A DNA stretch of 64,000 nucleotides, from NCBI GenBank assembly GCA_020635855.1, contig JACJYZ010000004.1, positions 238,020 through 302,019 of the forward strand. The letters run 5' to 3'. The DNA is from Flavobacteriales bacterium (GTDB lineage Bacteria > Bacteroidota > Bacteroidia > JACJYZ01). The position numbers and the translations under genes are program-made. Positions 27 through 26,549 of this stretch are shown here, piece after piece. How positions within the stretch are numbered: the first letter of the stretch is position 1; the number at the start of each line of letters is the position of its first letter. A model generated the notes under the pieces. It was not told the DNA's origin, ran no database searches, and saw only the letters and a list, made by a program, of their open reading frames with translations.

Positions 27-3014
27 ATGAGAAAGTATTGCATGCTTTTAGCCGGCATTCTGCTATGTGCAGGATGGGTTCGGGCACAGGAAACATTCCC
101 ATATAACGGTATTCCCGATCACGACCACAGGTACTATGCATTTACACATGCACGGCTTGTAACGGATCCCTCGAACATAATTGAGGATGGCACCCTGCTG
201 ATCCGGAATGGCAAGGTGGAAAAAACCGGAAAGGATGTGAGCATACCTGCCGGCAGTGTGGTGTACGACCTGAAAGGCAAATCCATCTACCCCTCTTTCA
301 TCGATGCCTACAGCACCTACGGAATGCCGGAAGTGAGCCGCGACCGCAGCGGCAGGGGCACCCAATATGAATCGAACAAAACCGGACCCTTTGCCTGGAA
401 CCAGGCGCTGCAACCCGAAACCGATGCATCGGCCTTGTTCACCCCCGACGAAAAGGAAGCCGGTAAGCTAAGAGCCCAAGGCTTCGGTGCGCTGAACATT
501 TACAACCCCGACGGCATCTCACGGGGCAATTCTTCGCTGGTGAGCCTGGCCGACAAGAACGACAATGAACTGGTGCTATCCGGTAAAGTTGCTGCCATGC
601 TCTCCTTCAACCGGGGATCATCCAGGCAATCATATCCCACCTCGCTGATGGGATGCATCGCCCTGATCCGCCAGACCTACATGGATGCCACCTGGTATAA
701 ACAAAACCCCACCGAATACAACCTTTCGCTGGAAGCATGGAACAACCTGCAAAAGCTGCCCCAGATCTTTGAAGCGGCAAACAAACTGAACGCCTTACGC
801 GCTGACCGTCTCGGCGATGAGTTCGGCCAACAGTACATCATCAAAGGAAACGGCGACGAATACCAACGCATCGATGAGATCAAGAAAACCGGCGCCACCT
901 TCATCATCCCGGTAAAATTTCCGGAAGCATATGATGTGAGCGATCCGTACGACGCCATGATGGTGGACCTCGAAGAACTCGAACATTGGGAAAAAGCCCC
1001 AACCAATGCAGCCCGCCTGGCCAAAGCCGGCGTGCCCTTTGCACTCACCGCATCCGACCTGAAAGATCCGAAAGACTTTCTTCCCAACCTGCGCAAAGCC
1101 ATGATGTTCGGACTCACCGAGCAACAGGCGCTGTCGGCCCTCACCACCACCCCGGCAAAGATTCTCCGTGCAGACCAACTGGTGGGCAGTCTGACACCCG
1201 GTAAACTGGCCAACTTCATCATCACCTCCGGCCCGGTCTTCGATGAGGAAACCACCCTTTACGAAAACTGGACCCTGGGACAACGTCACGTGATCGAAGA
1301 CATGAACCGACCCGACATACGCGGCACTTATGAACTCTCATTCGGAGACAGGAAAAACGAACTGAAGATCTCCGGCCAGCCGGCCAAACCCGAAGGCAAA
1401 CTCATGGTCTCCGATTCCGCTTCCACCAAGGCCGCCGTGAAATTCGACGGGACCCGGATCACGATTTCTTTCCAGGCAGATACATCATCAAAAGACCAGG
1501 TGCGACTGTCGGGTGTGATTGGTGACAGCGTTGTATTCAAAGGGCGCGGACAAACCGAGAACGGCATGTGGGTCTCCTGGCAGGCCATACGTACCAAACC
1601 CTACGAAAACAAAGACCACAAACATCATGATGATGAGCCCGACGAGGCGGCACTCGCACCTTATGTAGTTGCCTTCGGTCGCACCGCCATGCCCACCCAG
1701 GAAACCGTGCTCATTCGCCATGCCACCATCTGGACCAATACAGATAAAGGCATGCTGCTGAATGCCGATATCCTCATCCAGAACGGAAAGGTGGTCAAAG
1801 TAGGCATACTCGGAGACATGCCGGGCATTCACACCATCGATGGTTCCGGCATGCATATTACACCCGGTATCATCGACGAGCATTCACACATCGCCGGAAA
1901 CGGAGGCATCAATGAAGCCGGACAAGCCATCAGCGCCGAGGTGCGCGTGGGTGACATCCTCAACCCGGAAGACATCAACATCTACCGGCAACTTGCCGGT
2001 GGGGTAACCGCCGTTCAGGTGCTGCACGGTTCCGCCAACCCCATCGGGGGCCAGTCGGCACTGATCAAACTGCGTTGGGGCGCATCCGCCGAAGACATGA
2101 AGATCAAGGGAAGTGACGGGTTTATCAAATTCGCTTTGGGTGAGAACGTGAAATGGTCGAACCGCTCACCCGATTACAACGACCGCTATCCGCAAACCCG
2201 CATGGGCGTGGAACAGATCTATTACAAGGCTTTCACCGAAGCACGTGAATACGACAACGCCTGGAAGAAATACCAGGCAGCTAAAAAAGGACCCGCACCC
2301 CGGCGCGACCTCGAGTTGGAAACCCTGGCCGAAATCCTCAACAAGAAACGCTTCATCACCTGTCACTCCTACGTTCAATCGGAAATCAACATGCTGATGC
2401 ACGTGGCCGATTCAATGGGCTTCCGGGTGAACACCTTCACCCACATCCTGGAAGGCTACAAAGTGGCCGACAAGATGAAGGCACACGGTGTGGGTGGTTC
2501 TACCTTCTCCGACTGGTGGGCTTATAAAATGGAAGTAAGAGATGCCATCCCGTATAACGGTCCGCTCATGCACAACGAAGGTGTAACCGTGGCGTACAAT
2601 TCCGATGATGCGGAAATGGCCCGACGCCTGAACCAGGAAGCAGCCAAAGCTGTGATGTACGGCGGCCTTTCTGAAGTGGAAGCGCTGAAGTTCGTCACAC
2701 TCAATCCGGCCAAACTGCTGCACCTCGACAAACGCATGGGCAGCCTGCAGCCGGGCATGGATGCAGACGTGGTACTCTGGACCGGCCACCCCCTCTCCAT
2801 CTATTCAAAAGTTGAAAAAACCTTTGTGGATGGCAGGTGCCTGTTCGACCGCAAGGAAGATGCACAGATGCAGGAAATGATTGCCAAAGAACGCGAACGG
2901 CTCATCCAGAAAATGATGGCTGAAGGCGGCAAGGGTGGCCACAAGCCCGCTATGAAAGGCAAACGATTGTATCATTGCGACACCCTCGAAGACGAACCCT
3001 ACTGGATGGATTGA
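27..3014 (+). CDS. Large periplasmic amidohydrolase-family protein (995 aa) with two metal-dependent hydrolase regions and an N-terminal signal peptide
   Basis: Full-length ORF beginning MRKYCMLLAGILLCAGWVRAQ (signal peptide). Amidohydrolase-type motifs (PGIIDEHSHIAGNGG, HxH metal site) are visible. Translationally coupled neighbour is a second amidohydrolase. Confidence 0.8.
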   Translation: MRKYCMLLAGILLCAGWVRAQETFPYNGIPDHDHRYYAFTHARLVTDPSNIIEDGTLLIRNGKVEKTGKDVSIPAGSVVYDLKGKSIYPSFIDAYSTYGMPEVSRDRSGRGTQYESNKTGPFAWNQALQPETDASALFTPDEKEAGKLRAQGFGALNIYNPDGISRGNSSLVSLADKNDNELVLSGKVAAMLSFNRGSSRQSYPTSLMGCIALIRQTYMDATWYKQNPTEYNLSLEAWNNLQKLPQIFEAANKLNALRADRLGDEFGQQYIIKGNGDEYQRIDEIKKTGATFIIPVKFPEAYDVSDPYDAMMVDLEELEHWEKAPTNAARLAKAGVPFALTASDLKDPKDFLPNLRKAMMFGLTEQQALSALTTTPAKILRADQLVGSLTPGKLANFIITSGPVFDEETTLYENWTLGQRHVIEDMNRPDIRGTYELSFGDRKNELKISGQPAKPEGKLMVSDSASTKAAVKFDGTRITISFQADTSSKDQVRLSGVIGDSVVFKGRGQTENGMWVSWQAIRTKPYENKDHKHHDDEPDEAALAPYVVAFGRTAMPTQETVLIRHATIWTNTDKGMLLNADILIQNGKVVKVGILGDMPGIHTIDGSGMHITPGIIDEHSHIAGNGGINEAGQAISAEVRVGDILNPEDINIYRQLAGGVTAVQVLHGSANPIGGQSALIKLRWGASAEDMKIKGSDGFIKFALGENVKWSNRSPDYNDRYPQTRMGVEQIYYKAFTEAREYDNAWKKYQAAKKGPAPRRDLELETLAEILNKKRFITCHSYVQSEINMLMHVADSMGFRVNTFTHILEGYKVADKMKAHGVGGSTFSDWWAYKMEVRDAIPYNGPLMHNEGVTVAYNSDDAEMARRLNQEAAKAVMYGGLSEVEALKFVTLNPAKLLHLDKRMGSLQPGMDADVVLWTGHPLSIYSKVEKTFVDGRCLFDRKEDAQMQEMIAKERERLIQKMMAEGGKGGHKPAMKGKRLYHCDTLEDEPYWMD

Positions 3015-3047
3015 TCCCATTCTCAGAACATGCTATTTCTTATCAAC

Positions 3048-4361
3048 ATGAACAGACAATATATTTTACTTGCCACTGCCGCTTTGATCGGAATGAACGT
3101 TCCGGTGGAAGCACAAACACCGGCATCCCCGCAAACCACATCCATCCTGATCATGGACGCAACGGTTCACGTGGGCAACGGACAATTCATCCGGGAAGGT
3201 GCGGTTGGCTTCGACAAGGGCAAAATCACATTTGTAGGCAGGGCCTCCGAAGCCGATACCACCGCGTTCGGTGAAGTCATCCACGCCAAAGACAAACACC
3301 TGTACCCGGGACTGATCCTACCGGACAATACACTCGGACTGACAGAGATCGACGCCATCAGGCCCACCCTTGATTTCAATGAAACCGGTAGCATGAACCC
3401 GAACGTTCGTGCCCTGGTTGCATTCAACACCGATTCAAAGATCATCCCTACCCTGCGCGCCAATGGAGTGCTGCTATCCCAGGCCACACCACAGGGCGGA
3501 CTGATATCCGGAACCTCCGCCATCATGCAACTGGATGGCTGGAACTGGGAAGATGCGGTACTGGAACCAGAAGACGGTATTCACATGCACTGGCCCGTGA
3601 CCCGTTACCGGGGCAACCCATGGCGTGGAGAAGAAGGCATCCAGGAAAACAAAAACAAACCCGATGTACTGGAAGAGCTAGGCCTTTTCTTTGACCGGGC
3701 CAACGCTTACGCAAAAGACAAACAACCTGAATCAACCAACATGAAGCTTCACGCCATGCAGGGCTTGTTTGATGGAAGCAAGAACCTGTACATCCATGTG
3801 AACGATGCACGGGAGATCATGGAATCCGTGAAGTTCGCCCAATCCAAAAACGTAAAGAAGATCGTGGTGGTAGGCGCCGCGGATGCCTGGATGGTAACCG
3901 ACTTCCTGAAAGAAAACCACATCCCGGTGATCCTGCGCAGGGCACATGAGTTGCCCTACCGTGCTGATGAGGCGGTGGACCAACCTTACAAAACTGCTGC
4001 CGCACTCTTCCGTGCACAAATTCCCTATTGCCTGGATTATGCCGGTGACATGGAAGCCATGGGCGCCCGCAACCTGCCGTTCGTGGCAGGTACCACCGTG
4101 GCCTATGGTGTACCCAAAGAGGAAGCCCTGGCATCCATCACATTGCATGCAGCAGAGATCTTGGGTATTTCCGACCGCGTGGGCAGTCTGGAAGTTGGCA
4201 AAGACGCCACCCTGTTCCTGTCAACCGGAGATGTGATGGAGATGATGAAGAACCACCTGGAAGTGGCCTACATCGCAGGGAAGAAACTCGACCTGGATAC
4301 CCATCAGAAACAATTGTACCGGGAATACGCGAAGAAGTACGGGCAGGAGATCAAGGAGTAG
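3048..4361 (+). CDS. Amidohydrolase-family protein (second member of a conserved pair), secreted
   Basis: ORF 3030..4361 with the preferred start at ATG 3048 (MNRQYILLATAALIGMNVPVEAQ signal peptide). Amidohydrolase fold motifs are present. It starts about 30 nt after the upstream amidohydrolase. Confidence 0.75.
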   Translation: MNRQYILLATAALIGMNVPVEAQTPASPQTTSILIMDATVHVGNGQFIREGAVGFDKGKITFVGRASEADTTAFGEVIHAKDKHLYPGLILPDNTLGLTEIDAIRPTLDFNETGSMNPNVRALVAFNTDSKIIPTLRANGVLLSQATPQGGLISGTSAIMQLDGWNWEDAVLEPEDGIHMHWPVTRYRGNPWRGEEGIQENKNKPDVLEELGLFFDRANAYAKDKQPESTNMKLHAMQGLFDGSKNLYIHVNDAREIMESVKFAQSKNVKKIVVVGAADAWMVTDFLKENHIPVILRRAHELPYRADEAVDQPYKTAAALFRAQIPYCLDYAGDMEAMGARNLPFVAGTTVAYGVPKEEALASITLHAAEILGISDRVGSLEVGKDATLFLSTGDVMEMMKNHLEVAYIAGKKLDLDTHQKQLYREYAKKYGQEIKE

Positions 4362-4391
4362 CGGATCTGATGATCGGGATGGGTTCCACCC

Positions 4392-4423
4392 AATTCCTAA
4401 TCCCTAATTCCTAATCCCTAATT
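4392..4423. repeat. Tandem 14-mer (aattcctaatccct) x2.3 abutting the trpS stop between convergent genes
   Basis: Direct reading of the sequence at 4392-4423. Confidence 0.5.
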
Positions 4424-4424
4424 A

Positions 4425-5402
4425 TCAATACCCCACTTTCTCCCTCACCCGCTTAATCACCTTGCCGGCGATCAGCTTGGCCCGCAATGCACCTTTGGAC
4501 AACTCATTCTCGATGAGGGCCGGTGTGGCCATCAGCTCTTCGTAAGCGTTGCGCTCTTTTTCAAAACGTTTGCAGATCACCTGGAACAGGGCGTCTTTGG
4601 CATGGCCGTAACCGAAATTGCCCGCCAGGTATTTGGCACGCAGGTCTTCTATTTCCGCTTCCATTGCAAGCAGTTCATACAACCTGAAAACGTTGCATGT
4701 GTCGGGATCTTTGGGCTCTTCCAATGATTTCGCATCAGTGACGATGGTCATCACCTGCTTGCGAAGGGCCTTGTCGTTTTGAAAGATGTCGATGTAGTTG
4801 TTGTAGGATTTGCTCATCTTCTGGCCATCGGTGCCGGGCACCACCATCACCTTCTCATTGATGAGCGCTTCCGGCAGCACCAAGGTTTCTCCGTAGGCAT
4901 GGTTGAAGCTGCCGGCAATGTCCCGGGTGATCTCAAGGTGCTGCTTCTGGTCTTTGCCCACCGGAACAAATTCCGAATCATACAAGAGGATGTCGGCTGC
5001 CATGAGTACCGGATAATCAAACAGACCCACATTGACTTCATTCAGGCGGCTCGACTTATCCTTGAACGAATGCGCATTGGCCAGCATCGGGTAAGGTGTA
5101 AAGCAGTTCAGGTACCAGGTGAGTTCGCACACTTCGGTGACATCACTCTGACGAAACAGGATGCTGTCGTTGGTATCCAAACCGAAAGCCAGCCATGCGG
5201 CGGCTACAGCGAGGGTATTTTCCTTCAGCACCTTCGGGTCTCTCACGGTGGTCAGGGAATGCAGGTCGGCGATAAAATAGATCGCATCGTTCTCATCCCG
5301 GTGCGACAATTCGATCGCGGGCAGGATGGCACCCAGGATATTTCCCAAATGGGGTTTTCCTGTGCTCTGGATGCCGGTTAAAATTCTTGACATGGTATTC
5401 AA
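4425..5402 (-). CDS. trpS: Tryptophan--tRNA ligase
   Basis: Class I aaRS HIGH-type motif (TGKPHLGN) and KMSKS motif are present in the 325-aa translation. Overall TrpRS-like sequence. Confidence 0.9.
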   Translation of the reverse strand: MNTMSRILTGIQSTGKPHLGNILGAILPAIELSHRDENDAIYFIADLHSLTTVRDPKVLKENTLAVAAAWLAFGLDTNDSILFRQSDVTEVCELTWYLNCFTPYPMLANAHSFKDKSSRLNEVNVGLFDYPVLMAADILLYDSEFVPVGKDQKQHLEITRDIAGSFNHAYGETLVLPEALINEKVMVVPGTDGQKMSKSYNNYIDIFQNDKALRKQVMTIVTDAKSLEEPKDPDTCNVFRLYELLAMEAEIEDLRAKYLAGNFGYGHAKDALFQVICKRFEKERNAYEELMATPALIENELSKGALRAKLIAGKVIKRVREKVGY

Positions 5403-23946: not shown

Positions 23947-24708
23947 ATGGATACACAACAAGCTTTGTTCACTTACTGTCTGCGTCTCGCCGACAATTCC
24001 CTGGTACTCGGCAACCGACTGAGTGAATGGTGTGGTCATGCACCCATTCTCGAAGAAGACCTGGCCCTGGCCAACATCGCATTGGATAAGATCGGTCAGG
24101 CAAGAACCCTGTTCCAATATGCCGGAGAAGTGGAAGGCAAAGGCCGATCTGAAGACGACCTGGCCTACCGGAGAAGTGAACGCGAATTCTTCAACACCCT
24201 GCTGGCAGAATTACCCAAAGGCGACTTTGCTTTCACCATCGTGAGGCAATTGCTGAACGATACGTTCGACCAGTTGCTGTACCGCGCCTTGTCAAACAGC
24301 AAAGACGAAACCCTGAAAGCATTTGCCGTGAAATCCCTGAAGGAGGTTGATTACCATGTACGCCACATCAACCAATGGATGCTGCGCCTCGGCGATGGAA
24401 CAGAAGAAAGTCACCGGCGCGTTCAACAGGCATTGGATGACCTATGGCCCTATTCCGGCGAGCTGTTTGAAATGGATGAAGTGGATCGGATCATGATTTC
24501 CGAAGGCATCGGTGTTGACCTGAATGAACTTCGCGCTCCCTGGAACAAAGCCATTCAGGACATACTCACCGAAGCCACCCTGACCCAACCTGAAGACGGA
24601 TGGATGCATACCGGCGGGAAACGGGAAGGAAGGCATTCCGAACACCTCGGCTTTATGCTGGCGGAAATGCAGTTCTTACCCAGGGCCTATCCTGACGCCA
24701 AGTGGTAA
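23947..24708 (+). CDS. paaC: 1,2-phenylacetyl-CoA epoxidase subunit C
   Basis: Ferritin-like PaaC/PaaI-old pattern (LADNSLVLGNRLSEWCGHAPILEEDLALANIALD). Confidence 0.85.
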   Translation: MDTQQALFTYCLRLADNSLVLGNRLSEWCGHAPILEEDLALANIALDKIGQARTLFQYAGEVEGKGRSEDDLAYRRSEREFFNTLLAELPKGDFAFTIVRQLLNDTFDQLLYRALSNSKDETLKAFAVKSLKEVDYHVRHINQWMLRLGDGTEESHRRVQQALDDLWPYSGELFEMDEVDRIMISEGIGVDLNELRAPWNKAIQDILTEATLTQPEDGWMHTGGKREGRHSEHLGFMLAEMQFLPRAYPDAKW

Positions 24709-25193
24709 ACCCAACCCCGGAATTGATCTGGCAAGTACTATCGGAATTGCCCGACCCCGAGATCCCGGTCATCAGCATCGTGGAGCTCGGTATGGTGCGC
24801 GATGTTCAGGTGAATGAAAACGATGTGGTGGTCACCATCACCCCCACCTATTCCGGATGCCCGGCTACCCAGATGATTCGGGACGATATTGAAAGTAAAC
24901 TCAAGGAAATGGGTGTACAAAGCCCCATCATCCGGACCGTGATTTCTCCCGCCTGGACCACCGACTGGATCACAGATGAAGCAAGAAAAAAACTGATGGA
25001 TTATGGGATCAGTCCCCCACCGTATGCCACCGAAGACAAGGGAGCGCTCCTCGGCAAACCGAAACACGTGATATGCCCGCATTGCAAATCCGAACATACC
25101 CATCTCAAAAGCCAGTTCGGATCAACTCCGTGCAAAGCTTTGTATGTTTGTGATGATTGCCGGGAACCGTTCGATTACTTTAAGTGTATTTAA
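24702..25193 (+). CDS. paaD: Phenylacetate-CoA oxygenase subunit PaaD (SufT/DUF59-like)
   Basis: DPEIP...ISIVELGMVRDV is the hallmark DUF59/PaaD motif. GTG start overlaps the paaC stop by 7 nt. Confidence 0.8.
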   Translation: MVNPTPELIWQVLSELPDPEIPVISIVELGMVRDVQVNENDVVVTITPTYSGCPATQMIRDDIESKLKEMGVQSPIIRTVISPAWTTDWITDEARKKLMDYGISPPPYATEDKGALLGKPKHVICPHCKSEHTHLKSQFGSTPCKALYVCDDCREPFDYFKCI

Positions 25194-25200
25194 TGATTGT

Positions 25201-25231
25201 TGGTTATTAGTTGGTAGTTATTGGTTATTGG
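25201..25231. repeat. Left arm of a perfect 31-bp inverted repeat flanking the four-helix-bundle gene (tggttattagttggtagttattggttattgg)
   Basis: Exact reverse-complement match to 25720-25750, verified base by base. Confidence 0.9.
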
Positions 25232-25355
25232 TAACCGGGAAACATCCAAGTTGAAAAATGAATTTATAAGTATAGTCGATTATAAACAATTAAAAACCGG
25301 CTCACACTGGGAGACTACATTAACATTGCAGATTCAGAAACAAACTTCACCTGCT

Positions 25356-25733
25356 ATGGAAAAAGTTTCCTCATACACAGATTTAGAGGTATGGAAAATC
25401 AGCCGATCGCTGGTAAGCGACATTTATGAACTTACAACTGGCTTCCCCTCGTCAGAAATGTTTGGCATAACCAATCAAATGCGCAGGTGTGTGGTTTCAA
25501 TACCCTCTAATATTGCTGAAGGATGCGGCAGACAACAGCCCAAAGATTGCATGCGTTTTTTTTCCATTGCCCGTGGTTCTCTTTATGAACTTGAAACACA
25601 ATTGTACTTATCATTGGATTTAAAGTTTATTTCATCGCAATCCCTGGTATCAACCATGAATAAAGTTATCACTTGCAAACGATTGTTAAACGGGTTCATC
25701 AACTATTACCACCGATTAGCCAATAACCAATAA
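25356..25733 (+). CDS. Four-helix-bundle protein (23S rRNA intervening-sequence protein family, PF05635-like)
   Basis: MEKVSSYTDLEVWKISRSLVSDIYELT...PSNIAEGCGRQQPKD...ARGSLYELETQL is the family signature. The gene is about 42% GC inside an operon of about 57% GC. Its stop codon lies inside the right inverted repeat. Confidence 0.85.
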   Translation: MEKVSSYTDLEVWKISRSLVSDIYELTTGFPSSEMFGITNQMRRCVVSIPSNIAEGCGRQQPKDCMRFFSIARGSLYELETQLYLSLDLKFISSQSLVSTMNKVITCKRLLNGFINYYHRLANNQ

Positions 25734-25750
25734 CTACCAACTAATAACCA
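25720..25750. repeat. Right arm of the 31-bp inverted repeat (ccaataaccaataactaccaactaataacca)
   Basis: Exact reverse complement of 25201-25231. Confidence 0.9.
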
Positions 25751-25772
25751 GTATCCAAAACCACAAACTCAA

Positions 25773-26549
25773 GTGTACCAACATATCCTCTTCGAAACCC
25801 GAAACAACGTCGCCCACCTCACCCTCAACCGCCCTGACGCACTCAATAGTTTTCACACAGGCATGGCAAAGGAGGTGCAGGCCGCACTTGACATATGCGC
25901 ATCCGATCAGGGCATCCGTGCCGTTTGCCTCACCGGAGCCGGACGTGGATTCTGTGCCGGACAGGATCTTGCAGAAGCCATCGAACCCGGAACCGATCTC
26001 GCCGGCATTGTTCGCAACACATACAACCCCATCATCCTGAAAATCCGCCGACTCGAAAAACCAGTGGTATGCGCTGTGAATGGTGTGGCTGCCGGCGCCG
26101 GTGCCAACATCGCTTTTGCATGCGACATCACCCTTGCCGCCGAAAGCGCTCCCTTCATCCAATCTTTCGCCAACATCGGACTCATACCAGATAGTGCCGG
26201 CACCTATTTTTTACCGCGCCTGGTGGGTTTGCAGAAAGCCACTGCCATGGCCATGCTGGCGGAAAAGATCAAAGCGGGGGAAGCGGCAGACCTGGGGCTC
26301 ATTTACAAAGCCGTGCCGGACGATCTGCTGATCAACGAAGCCACTGCCCTTGCCGAAAAACTTGCTGGCATGCCCACACGCGGATTGGGGCTCACGAAAC
26401 GAGCATTCCTGGCCGGCTTTAACAACACACTCGAACAACAACTGGAACTCGAAGAGCAACTGCAGGCGGAAGCCGGAACAACCGCCGATCACAAAGAAGG
26501 TGTACAAGCCTTCCTCGAAAAAAGAAAACCTGCATTCAAAGGTGCATAA
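25773..26549 (+). CDS. paaG: Enoyl-CoA hydratase/isomerase PaaG (1,2-epoxyphenylacetyl-CoA isomerase)
   Basis: Crotonase-fold motifs (AHLTLNRPDALNSF, CLTGAGRGFCAGQDL). Position in the paa cluster. Confidence 0.8.
   Translation: MYQHILFETRNNVAHLTLNRPDALNSFHTGMAKEVQAALDICASDQGIRAVCLTGAGRGFCAGQDLAEAIEPGTDLAGIVRNTYNPIILKIRRLEKPVVCAVNGVAAGAGANIAFACDITLAAESAPFIQSFANIGLIPDSAGTYFLPRLVGLQKATAMAMLAEKIKAGEAADLGLIYKAVPDDLLINEATALAEKLAGMPTRGLGLTKRAFLAGFNNTLEQQLELEEQLQAEAGTTADHKEGVQAFLEKRKPAFKGA

Follow-up and report, generated by a model that had tools for sequence, protein, structure and literature searches.

What is a small gene doing inside a paa operon, enclosed between the two arms of a perfect inverted repeat? 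The question is raised by the paaD-paaG spacer of a Flavobacteriales bacterium known from a metagenome-assembled genome (MAG; assembly GCA_020635855.1, contig JACJYZ010000004.1, positions 238,020 to 302,019 of the forward strand; this 64,000-nucleotide stretch is the window referred to throughout). Here a gene of the four-helix-bundle (4HB) family, which includes the proteins of 23S rRNA intervening sequences (IVSs), lies between a G/T-rich and a C/A-rich arm that are both built of 7-nt units, or heptads. The locus belongs to a widespread type of element: homologues with the same architecture occur in Bacteroidota and Ignavibacteria operons, on plasmids of cyanobacteria and within a genuine 23S rRNA IVS. 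The reading favoured here, with modest confidence, is that the cassette is an IVS-type guest, a gene in a hairpin that is transcribed together with its host operon and whose heptamer stem is probably cut by RNase III. The class of heptamer-armed operon cassettes to which it belongs is large and, so far as the searchable literature shows, undescribed.

A gene in a hairpin between paaD and paaG

The arms of the cassette form an exact 31-nt inverted repeat, TGGTTATTAGTTGGTAGTTATTGGTTATTGG at 25201-25231 and its reverse complement at 25720-25750, separated by 488 nt; beyond these two arms the 64-kb window holds no match to the 31-mer at three or fewer mismatches, and none appeared in 100 shuffles. 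A first-pass annotation of the stretch, made from the letters alone, had described this repeat, the 125-aa 4HB gene inside it and a stop codon situated in the right arm, and all three descriptions are borne out; the stop codon TAA occupies 25731-25733, and the last four codons of the gene are likewise within the right arm. The features of the region are as follows.

24702-25193, + strand: paaD (1,2-phenylacetyl-CoA epoxidase subunit D), the host cistron on the upstream side; TIGR02159 match of 201 bits (cut-off 108), with PF23451 and PF01883
25201-25231, + strand: left (5′) arm, G/T-rich; four heptads GTTATTA, GTTGGTA, GTTATTG and GTTATTG with a final G
25232-25355, + strand: leader within the loop, 124 nt from the left arm to the start codon, defined from the sequence, the promoter and terminator scan and Rfam
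25356-25733, + strand: 4HB gene (23S rRNA IVS protein / Avd-like), 125 aa; PF05635, TIGR02436
25720-25750, + strand: right (3′) arm, C/A-rich, exact reverse complement of the left arm, from the inverted-repeat search
25751-25772, + strand: residual A/C-rich spacer, 22 nt, up to the paaG start codon, defined from the sequence
25773-26549, + strand: paaG-type enoyl-CoA hydratase/isomerase, the host cistron on the downstream side; TIGR02280 match of 328.7 bits, which does not reach the equivalog cut-off of 345, and PF00378 at E 1e-67

The left arm begins 7 nt after the paaD stop codon. The internal triplication that had been read into the arm is not there, TTGGTTATT being present twice per arm and not three times; the true regularity is a 7-nt period, with GTT at 25203, 25210, 25217 and 25224, a lag-7 identity of 0.75 and units that conform to the family consensus GTTRWYR. 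The suggestion that the 31-mer stems from a dispersed repeat family likewise fails, as no further copy is present in the window or in the JGI metagenomes and the arms of different cassettes in the same genome are not alike. Folded as RNA, the cassette is predicted to be closed by a continuous stem of ~33 bp (-151.7 kcal/mol, z = -5.1), in which G-U pairs lengthen the stem past the 31-mer to about 25199-25233. The GC content of the gene had been put at 42% against 57% for its neighbours; the direction of this contrast is right and the figures are not, the measured values being 39% for the 4HB gene, 37.5% for the whole 579-nt spacer, 51% for paaD and 55% for paaG. A signal scan found no promoter-like or terminator-like site on the + strand of the cassette. 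Rfam gave only chance miRNA-precursor matches for the window cassette, for the filled metH-metF cassette L015 and for the empty hairpins of L055 and L065 that are described below; it gave no rRNA match at 24500-26500, and the cassette sits between paaD and paaG and not in an rRNA helix. No direct repeat adjoins the arms as a target-site duplication, and there is no recombinase among the linked genes. Elsewhere in the window, at 4388-4424, a lone array of ~5 CCTAATY heptads lies ~25 nt past a + strand stop codon, with no inverted partner seen nearby.

Two ENA contigs from other metagenome assemblies (L087 and L088) carry arms and a gene identical to those of the window, which rules out that the feature arose in the assembly of this MAG. 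Both contigs stop 17-74 nt beyond the stop codon of the gene, at or just past the right arm; such contig ends show that the inverted repeat breaks short-read assemblies.

The window cassette is a derived insertion in a short paaD-paaG spacer. In the closest syntenic paa operon (L081, PaaD 72% identical) the gene order is kept and the paaD-paaG spacer measures 56 nt with no cassette, and the corresponding spacer of L086 is 78 nt, also with no cassette, so that relatives lacking the insert do exist, as the first-pass annotation had proposed to look for. Removal of 25201-25750 leaves 29 nt between paaD and paaG (25194-25200 plus 25751-25772), a remainder that is about the size of an uninterrupted paaD-paaG spacer. 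Among 111 other paaD 3′ junctions taken from metagenomes, most of them with spacers of 0-50 nt, none has a 4HB gene. The comparison is one of gene order and spacer length, the closest PaaD in the databases being only 72% identical, and a nucleotide-level empty site was therefore not obtained. Two paa operons carry related structures: one of the 111 junctions, on an unrelated metagenome contig (L096), has an empty heptad hairpin, (AAGTTGT...)/(...CAACTCA), exactly at the paaD-paaG junction in a 92-nt spacer, and a metagenomic paa operon (L103, 1656-2130, - strand) has a divergent PF05635 gene at the paaG-paaH junction between (GATTRAM)n arms, of which the right arm finishes at the paaH start codon.

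The protein itself is an unambiguous member of its family. It matches PF05635 at E 1e-36 (125.8 bits against a cut-off of 33.8) over profile positions 2-106 of 106, and TIGR02436 at E 4e-35, above the curated cut-off; the nearest solved relative is XCC0516 (PDB 2GSC, E 2e-22), whose entry comprises 5 chains. All 30 family-invariant residues of alignment A1 are retained, including R44, S48, N52, E55 and G56 of the motif RxxxSxxxNxxEG, the reported conserved core of PF05635/TIGR02436 proteins. To judge from dN/dS values of 0.03-0.13 for the closest homologue pairs, and from internal stops in none of 81 genes, the 4HB protein is under strong purifying selection. The family is very large, with 20,676 cluster representatives at E <=0.001 and 7,138 at E <=1e-10. 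Many homologues in alignment A1 end in tails such as ...TNNQ or ...TTNNQKQTTNNQ, which are translated arm heptads; the annotated ends of these open reading frames (ORFs) thus often extend into the 3′ arm.

Heptad arms around related genes

If the arms of the paa cassette belong to its kind of gene, arms of the same sort should surround other members, a test that had been set in advance. Most copies do carry them. In 80 genomic loci of the closest homologues, drawn from Bacteroidota and Ignavibacteria, arrays with a 7-nt period precede the gene in 52 of 78 loci and follow it in 56 of 78; among control windows, only 9 of 311 contain one. Upstream arrays have the unit GTTRWYR and downstream arrays its reverse complement, with 3-5 units each. 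In the prevailing order a G/T array comes before the gene and a C/A array after it, and none of these loci has the opposite order. The order of the two arms was considered as a marker of the transcribed strand and dropped, because an inverted repeat reads the same from either strand; polarity is thus a property of the hairpin, and only the orientation of the ORF is informative. Arms of the same locus are more complementary to each other (mean score 15.2) than arms combined across loci (10.2, p = 2e-16) or sequences placed in the same geometry at random positions (7.9), and this holds at orthologous junctions, where scores within and across loci are 16.9 vs 12.7 (p = 1e-4) and 15.4 vs 9.1 (p = 5e-8). 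Since the arms match within a locus and differ between loci, the two arms evolve in concert. The 3′ arm (A 0.51, C 0.32, T 0.11) is a purer C/A sequence than complementarity demands, and units of the TAACTGA type are present in the L026 arm.

The association is also seen from the opposite direction. In a blind scan of 1.4 Mb, almost all long-range heptad-armed inverted repeats scoring at least 16 contain a 4HB gene, and the scan revealed unsought second cassettes in L001, L022, L041 and L052, as well as the L103 cassette. Some operons (trp, ilv/leu and others) thus hold two 4HB cassettes in successive spacers, whose heptad units differ and whose proteins are 47-67% identical: L052 at 2995-3348 and 4064-4321, L001 at 3001-3399 and 4829-5239, and L022 and L041 at about 1240-1600 and 2992-3357. 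The second copy of L052 is shortened to 85 aa and accompanied by a (TTAATGG)n array of ~14 units. That each protein has its own heptad unit is compatible with these unlike arms of same-genome paralogues; it is not proved by them, as host lineage and protein phylogeny are confounded. A further side observation concerns L042, a MAG labelled Bifidobacterium breve with a Flavobacterium-like met operon, whose (GTTGTCG)n arms are near-identical to those of L065 at a dS of 0.5 and which is probably mis-binned.

The host junctions are functionally unrelated; they include a cysteine-synthase-like pyridoxal phosphate (PLP) enzyme followed by metH, metH followed by metF, ilvC followed by leuC, miaB followed by a sigma-54 activator, and the trp operon. 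Of 77 copies in Bacteroidota, 74 share the orientation of both neighbours, where the baseline in the same loci is 56% (p = 1e-15). The earlier proposal of a mobile cassette that targets transcribed regions therefore survives in part: a guest of transcribed regions fits the co-orientation and the diversity of host operons, and the exact 31-mer is not dispersed. In every one of 81 loci the GC content of the gene is below that of its flanks, and it rises and falls with host GC (r = 0.92), so that low GC is a trait of the family; as a mark of foreign origin or recent transfer, which is how the contrast at the paa locus might be taken, it is ruled out by the same figures.

These data dispose of the plainest alternative, that the window holds an ordinary accessory gene beside a coincidental repeat, an assembly chimera, or a gene with a paa-specific function. 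Such a view could appeal to the position inside the paa operon and to the low GC; the repeat, however, arises in no shuffle, identical arms and gene recur in independent assemblies, the architecture is repeated in more than 50 loci, the hosts are unrelated (met, ilv/leu, trp, nrd, cas, cmr, miaB), and the gene is missing from all 111 other paaD junctions. The alternative as a whole is scarcely credible, and chance, assembly artefact and paa-specific function are excluded by the data.

Outside the Bacteroidota and Ignavibacteria, relatives are encoded on 28 plasmids, mostly cyanobacterial, and heptad inverted arms surround the gene on plasmids of Calothrix (TTAGCTG), Pseudanabaena (between cas6 and cas4), Picosynechococcus (between cmr2 and cmr3), Geminocystis and Riemerella; on a Nostoc edaphicum plasmid, between nrdB and nrdA, the arms are (TAGGGAG)n/(CTCCCTA)n with a score of 31. 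Nine IMG/VR contigs carry relatives with heptad arms of GGCNTTC-type units, the viral status of these contigs being that of the database label, and GenBank phages gave no match at E <=1e-8. The connection with rRNA is made directly by a copy on plasmid AZO_p2 of Azospirillum lipoferum (L214), which lies inside a 23S rRNA gene at helix 45 and is thus a genuine IVS; its arms consist of the heptads GAGGACG, GATGACA, GAGGACG and GAGGACA and their reverse complement.

Pairing, movement and residence

What would such a cassette do to its host transcript? Its sense orientation in the operon, together with the absence from it of any promoter-like or terminator-like signal, makes transcription within the paa polycistron most likely. 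As an IVS-type guest it would be co-transcribed with paaABCD and paaGHIJ, and the G/U-rich 5′ arm and C/A-rich 3′ arm would pair in the transcript to form a duplex of ~33 bp with the guest gene looped out. By analogy with the heptamer-built stems of rRNA IVSs, RNase III would cleave this duplex; the transcript would then fall into a paaABCD part, a guest mRNA and a paaGHIJ part, so that both halves of the operon became uncoupled and paaG was preceded by an unstructured, C/A-rich leader. The 4HB protein, probably a pentamer, may in turn bind the heptad stem, in the manner in which the related protein Avd binds an RNA stem-loop. With the end of the guest ORF in the right arm and that of paaD 7 nt from the left arm, translation would compete with formation of the stem, and on a single mRNA molecule the stem and translation of the guest ORF would be mutually exclusive.

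Several considerations weigh against this reading. Pairing and cleavage of the paa transcript are argued from analogy with rRNA. In the operon arms of Bacteroidota the mismatches are A(5′)-C(3′) in 32 cases and C-A in 10, as against 13 G-T and 9 T-G that would be compatible with G-U pairs, and RNAduplex gives the antisense strand the better energy at 50 of 76 loci (p = 0.012). L214, which is a true rRNA IVS, has arm mismatches that are G-U compatible, and its sense strand is better by 21 kcal/mol. The G-U wobble test was thus rejected as support for sense-RNA pairing, the bias in operon cassettes being the opposite one. A 31/31 match exceeds what RNA pairing needs, and DNA-level templating could be its source; ribosomes on the guest ORF must unwind the right arm; and the two arms are transcribed ~500 nt apart. 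Two cassettes, those of the Calothrix plasmid (L209) and of the Nostoc edaphicum plasmid at nrdB-nrdA (L211), are antisense to the operon that they interrupt. Finally, 48 of the 80 closest homologues sit at two fixed met-operon junctions across whole orders, junctions being classified by the downstream gene only, and the nearest neighbour in the tree is at the same junction in 42 of 47 cases. This clustering implies that some cassettes are long-term residents, and residence at the met junctions looks long-term and not frequently mobile. The excess of A-C mismatches goes together with the extra-pure C/A composition of the 3′ arm, and would fit a second role of that arm as an unstructured leader free of a Shine-Dalgarno sequence.

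Evidence on movement comes from the same met operons, where hairpins without a gene are found. In these empty heptad hairpins a G/T array on the 5′ side is joined by a loop of ~3-10 nt to a C/A array on the 3′ side, which stops a few nt short of the start codon that follows; such hairpins are present at the metH-metF junction in L053, L055 and L065, and in 22 other genomes the same junction holds a full cassette. Flavobacterium copies from the two met junctions intermingle in a rough neighbour-joining tree, and the genomes with a metH-metF cassette that were checked have neither cassette nor heptad hairpin before metH, a combination which suggests that cassettes relocate between neighbouring spacers. 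In L063 (2896-3428) a 4HB gene is placed between two full hairpins in front of metF, in the order G/T, C/A, gene, G/T, C/A, an arrangement in which either local or long-range pairing is possible; conjecturally, the direct arrays could recombine, so that the gene is excised or inserted and a hairpin without a gene remains. Candidate routes to new spacers are accordingly entry into pre-existing heptad hairpins or recombination between them. In a strict census at scores of 14 or more, 8 short-loop heptad hairpins were counted in 1.4 Mb, a number too small for statistical treatment, since empty hairpins are in many cases imperfect. The met-operon copies are located downstream of an S-adenosylmethionine (SAM) riboswitch. 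As a separate observation, Flavo-1 RNA (RF01705) scores above its gathering threshold on the opposite strand in L065 (1787-1864, - strand) and L055 (1822-1889, - strand), in the interval from the SAM riboswitch to the gene that opens the cassette-bearing met operon.

Much of this would also be expected of an element that acts at the level of DNA, with arms that serve as cruciform, hairpin or recombination substrates and are homogenised by intrastrand template switching and 7-nt slippage; RNA pairing would then be incidental, and cassettes would move by recombination of heptad arrays or by insertion into hairpin loops. The perfection of the 31-nt arms agrees with such an origin, as do arms that are perfect tandem arrays, (GTTGTCG)n and (TAGGGAG)n, implying recent slippage matched in both arms, and a mismatch spectrum and duplex energies that bear no sign of selection on sense RNA. 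The direct arrays of L063, by which a circle could be excised or integrated so that a hairpin without a gene is left, the empty metH-metF hairpins where other genomes carry the cassette, and the presence of closely related 4HB genes at both met junctions within Flavobacterium point the same way. Strong co-orientation with host operons is not, however, a prediction of a pure DNA mechanism; the stems of the homologous rRNA IVSs have been proven to be RNA substrates and the L214 mismatches are G-U compatible; there is neither a target-site duplication nor a linked recombinase; and the arms are still paired at fixed orthologous sites over long divergence, which needs selection or continuous templating. 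An element of this purely DNA-level kind is considered rather unlikely.

Another possibility is a domesticated operon regulator, as opposed to a selfish guest, in which the 4HB pentamer would bind its own and empty heptad stems to tune the stability or translational coupling of the neighbouring cistrons, the C/A-rich 3′ arm acting as the Shine-Dalgarno-free leader of the next gene. In keeping with this are the strong purifying selection on the protein, its residence at two met-operon junctions across Flavobacteriia and Sphingobacteriia, the C/A purity of the 3′ arm beyond the requirements of pairing, and the distance of 0-22 nt from the end of that arm to the start codon of the following gene, seen in the window as well as in L055, L065, L063, L096 and L103. 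The G/T arm comes first in all hairpins; arrays have 3-5 heptads, and 4HB proteins are described as pentamers; a stem-loop of RNA is bound by Avd; and TAACTGA heptamers lie just 5′ of start codons in other phyla (PMC4679880). Against these points, the cassettes are scattered sporadically over unrelated operons and nearly all paa operons are without the gene, copies inside rRNA have no cistron to regulate, the Coxiella copy is decaying and untranslated, and binding is known for Avd only, a member of a diversity-generating retroelement (DGR). A regulatory role of this kind is accordingly given a low probability. Both the DNA-level and the regulatory explanations are compatible with an IVS-type guest and are not mutually exclusive with it.

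A more speculative extension, thought improbable at present, joins heptamer hairpins and the 4HB pentamer in a single self-recognising system that colonises, or recombines between, transcribed hairpin loops. With one protomer per heptad the ring would span ~5 heptads, or 35 nt. Such a system would unite, across several phyla, rRNA IVSs, the STRR (short tandemly repeated repetitive) sequences, the TAACTGA and GGGAATC arrays and the IVS-protein (IVP) genes of cas operons, and it would also take in the cyanobacterial STRR heptamer insertions in RNase P RNA, reportedly described by Vioque in 1997. If IVSs are the rRNA-resident minority of a much larger class of heptamer-armed operon cassettes, the very large 4HB family gains a candidate ligand in its own heptad stem, and a common explanation becomes available for the heptamer arrays of cyanobacteria, Xanthomonas, Beggiatoaceae and Bacteroidota and for IVP genes counted as CRISPR-associated. 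For annotation, cassettes of this kind can be expected to split operons, to lengthen ORFs into arms and to break assemblies.

Comparison with known systems

Among known mobile units, integron cassettes and MITEs (miniature inverted-repeat transposable elements) resemble the paa cassette in being small, promoterless, co-oriented guests whose structured repeats vary in sequence and keep their structure. The integron gene cassette is ruled out: the arms flank both sides of the ORF in place of a single attC-type site at its 3′ end, the neighbours are operon genes, and neither an integrase nor a cassette array is nearby. A MITE or other transposon with terminal inverted repeats is likewise ruled out, as there is no target-site duplication, no further copy of the arm occurs in the window or in the JGI metagenomes, and the arms of same-genome copies differ, so that copies have no terminal repeat sequence in common. 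The RNase III hairpins of phage T7 early mRNA and the enterobacterial repetitive extragenic palindromes (REPs) and bacterial interspersed mosaic elements (BIMEs) are intercistronic hairpins that set mRNA ends and differential stability, and REPs are dispersed and mobile. They have no gene in the loop and no heptamer periodicity, and REPs are mobilised by REP-associated tyrosine transposases (RAYTs); no RAYT transposase gene is linked to the window cassette.

The protein has its best-studied counterpart in the DGR accessory protein Avd (bAvd, PDB 4DWL), a homologous four-helix bundle that assembles into a pentameric barrel with a positive charge. Every one of the five Avd protomers touches an RNA stem-loop (bioRxiv 10.1101/2023.10.23.563531), which is bound through flipped-out bases. 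Unlike a DGR, the window gene has no reverse transcriptase (RT) and no template/variable repeat pair near it, the ORFs within ~4 kb being of the paaE/A/B/C/D and paaG/H/I/J types; a diversity-generating retroelement is ruled out by these paa neighbours, and the PF22296 bAvd model is not among the Pfam matches of the window protein.

Intergenic heptamer arrays (STRR; TAACTGA, PMC4679880; GGGAATC/GGGGAYT, PMC4692102) are closer in DNA structure, being tandem 7-nt units in intergenic regions, often in operons just before start codons, and in the same phyla (Cyanobacteria, Bacteroidetes, Xanthomonas). The window shares both traits, having tandem 7-nt units and a right arm that ends 22 nt before the paaG start. 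In Xanthomonas a GGGAATC array abuts XCC0516, the crystallised 4HB family member, beside accB (supplement of PMC4692102), and X. campestris has 70 inverted pairs of heptamer arrays (PMC4692102). The published arrays differ in unit sequence from those of the window, and they are treated as regulator binding sites or G-quadruplex formers with no mention of PF05635 or IVSs; the literature searched draws no link between heptamer arrays and PF05635 genes and no description of IVS-type cassettes in mRNA operons. 23S_rRNA_IVP genes have also been published as CRISPR-associated (PMC3936711, PMC10910872). The 4HB genes of L210 (cas6-cas4) and L212 (cmr2-cmr3) lie in cas operons with heptad arms as elsewhere, and the CRISPR association of such genes may simply be that of guest cassettes in operons.

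The ORF-less rRNA IVSs of Salmonella, Yersinia, Campylobacter and others are extended stem-loops that take the place of a small loop and are cut by RNase III. The empty heptad hairpins of L055, L065, L053 and L096 are the corresponding ORF-less state, but in mRNA spacers, where they end just before start codons.

The closest comparison is with the rRNA IVSs that carry an S23p/IVP ORF, as in Leptospira, Coxiella and Azospirillum, and the IVS-like architecture that had been read from the window holds in detail. The ORF in the loop belongs to PF05635 in both, and terminal complementary sequences form a stem of ~28-33 bp around the whole element. In both the arms are tandem heptamers, GACAGAT in Coxiella and GAGGACR in Azospirillum, a feature that is not in the classical definition of an IVS. 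Both have GC below that of the host (in Coxiella and in the cassettes described here), a sporadic distribution and, most likely for the paa cassette too, a place in the host transcript. In the Coxiella IVS, tandem GACAGAT heptamers occupy the 5′ part, and RNase III cuts in the middle of the 28-bp stem, where the first repeat begins (PMC4990558). The differences are that the window cassette is found in the intercistronic spacer of a protein-coding operon and not in helix 9, 25 or 45; that its unit is GTTRWYR; that its ORF is intact and under purifying selection, whereas that of Coxiella is decaying and untranslated; that RNase III excision has been shown for rRNA IVSs and is extended to the paa cassette by analogy; and that the arm mismatches of operon copies have no G-U bias. 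The origin, mobility and function of rRNA IVSs have been unclear since 1990. If IVSs are the rRNA-resident minority of a larger class of operon cassettes, that class could be studied in cultivable Flavobacteria and cyanobacteria with the expression of the flanking genes as a readout. All the features of an ORF-bearing IVS for which the locus was tested are present except location in rRNA, and the paa element is thus best placed with these systems, as an IVS-type cassette in an mRNA operon spacer.

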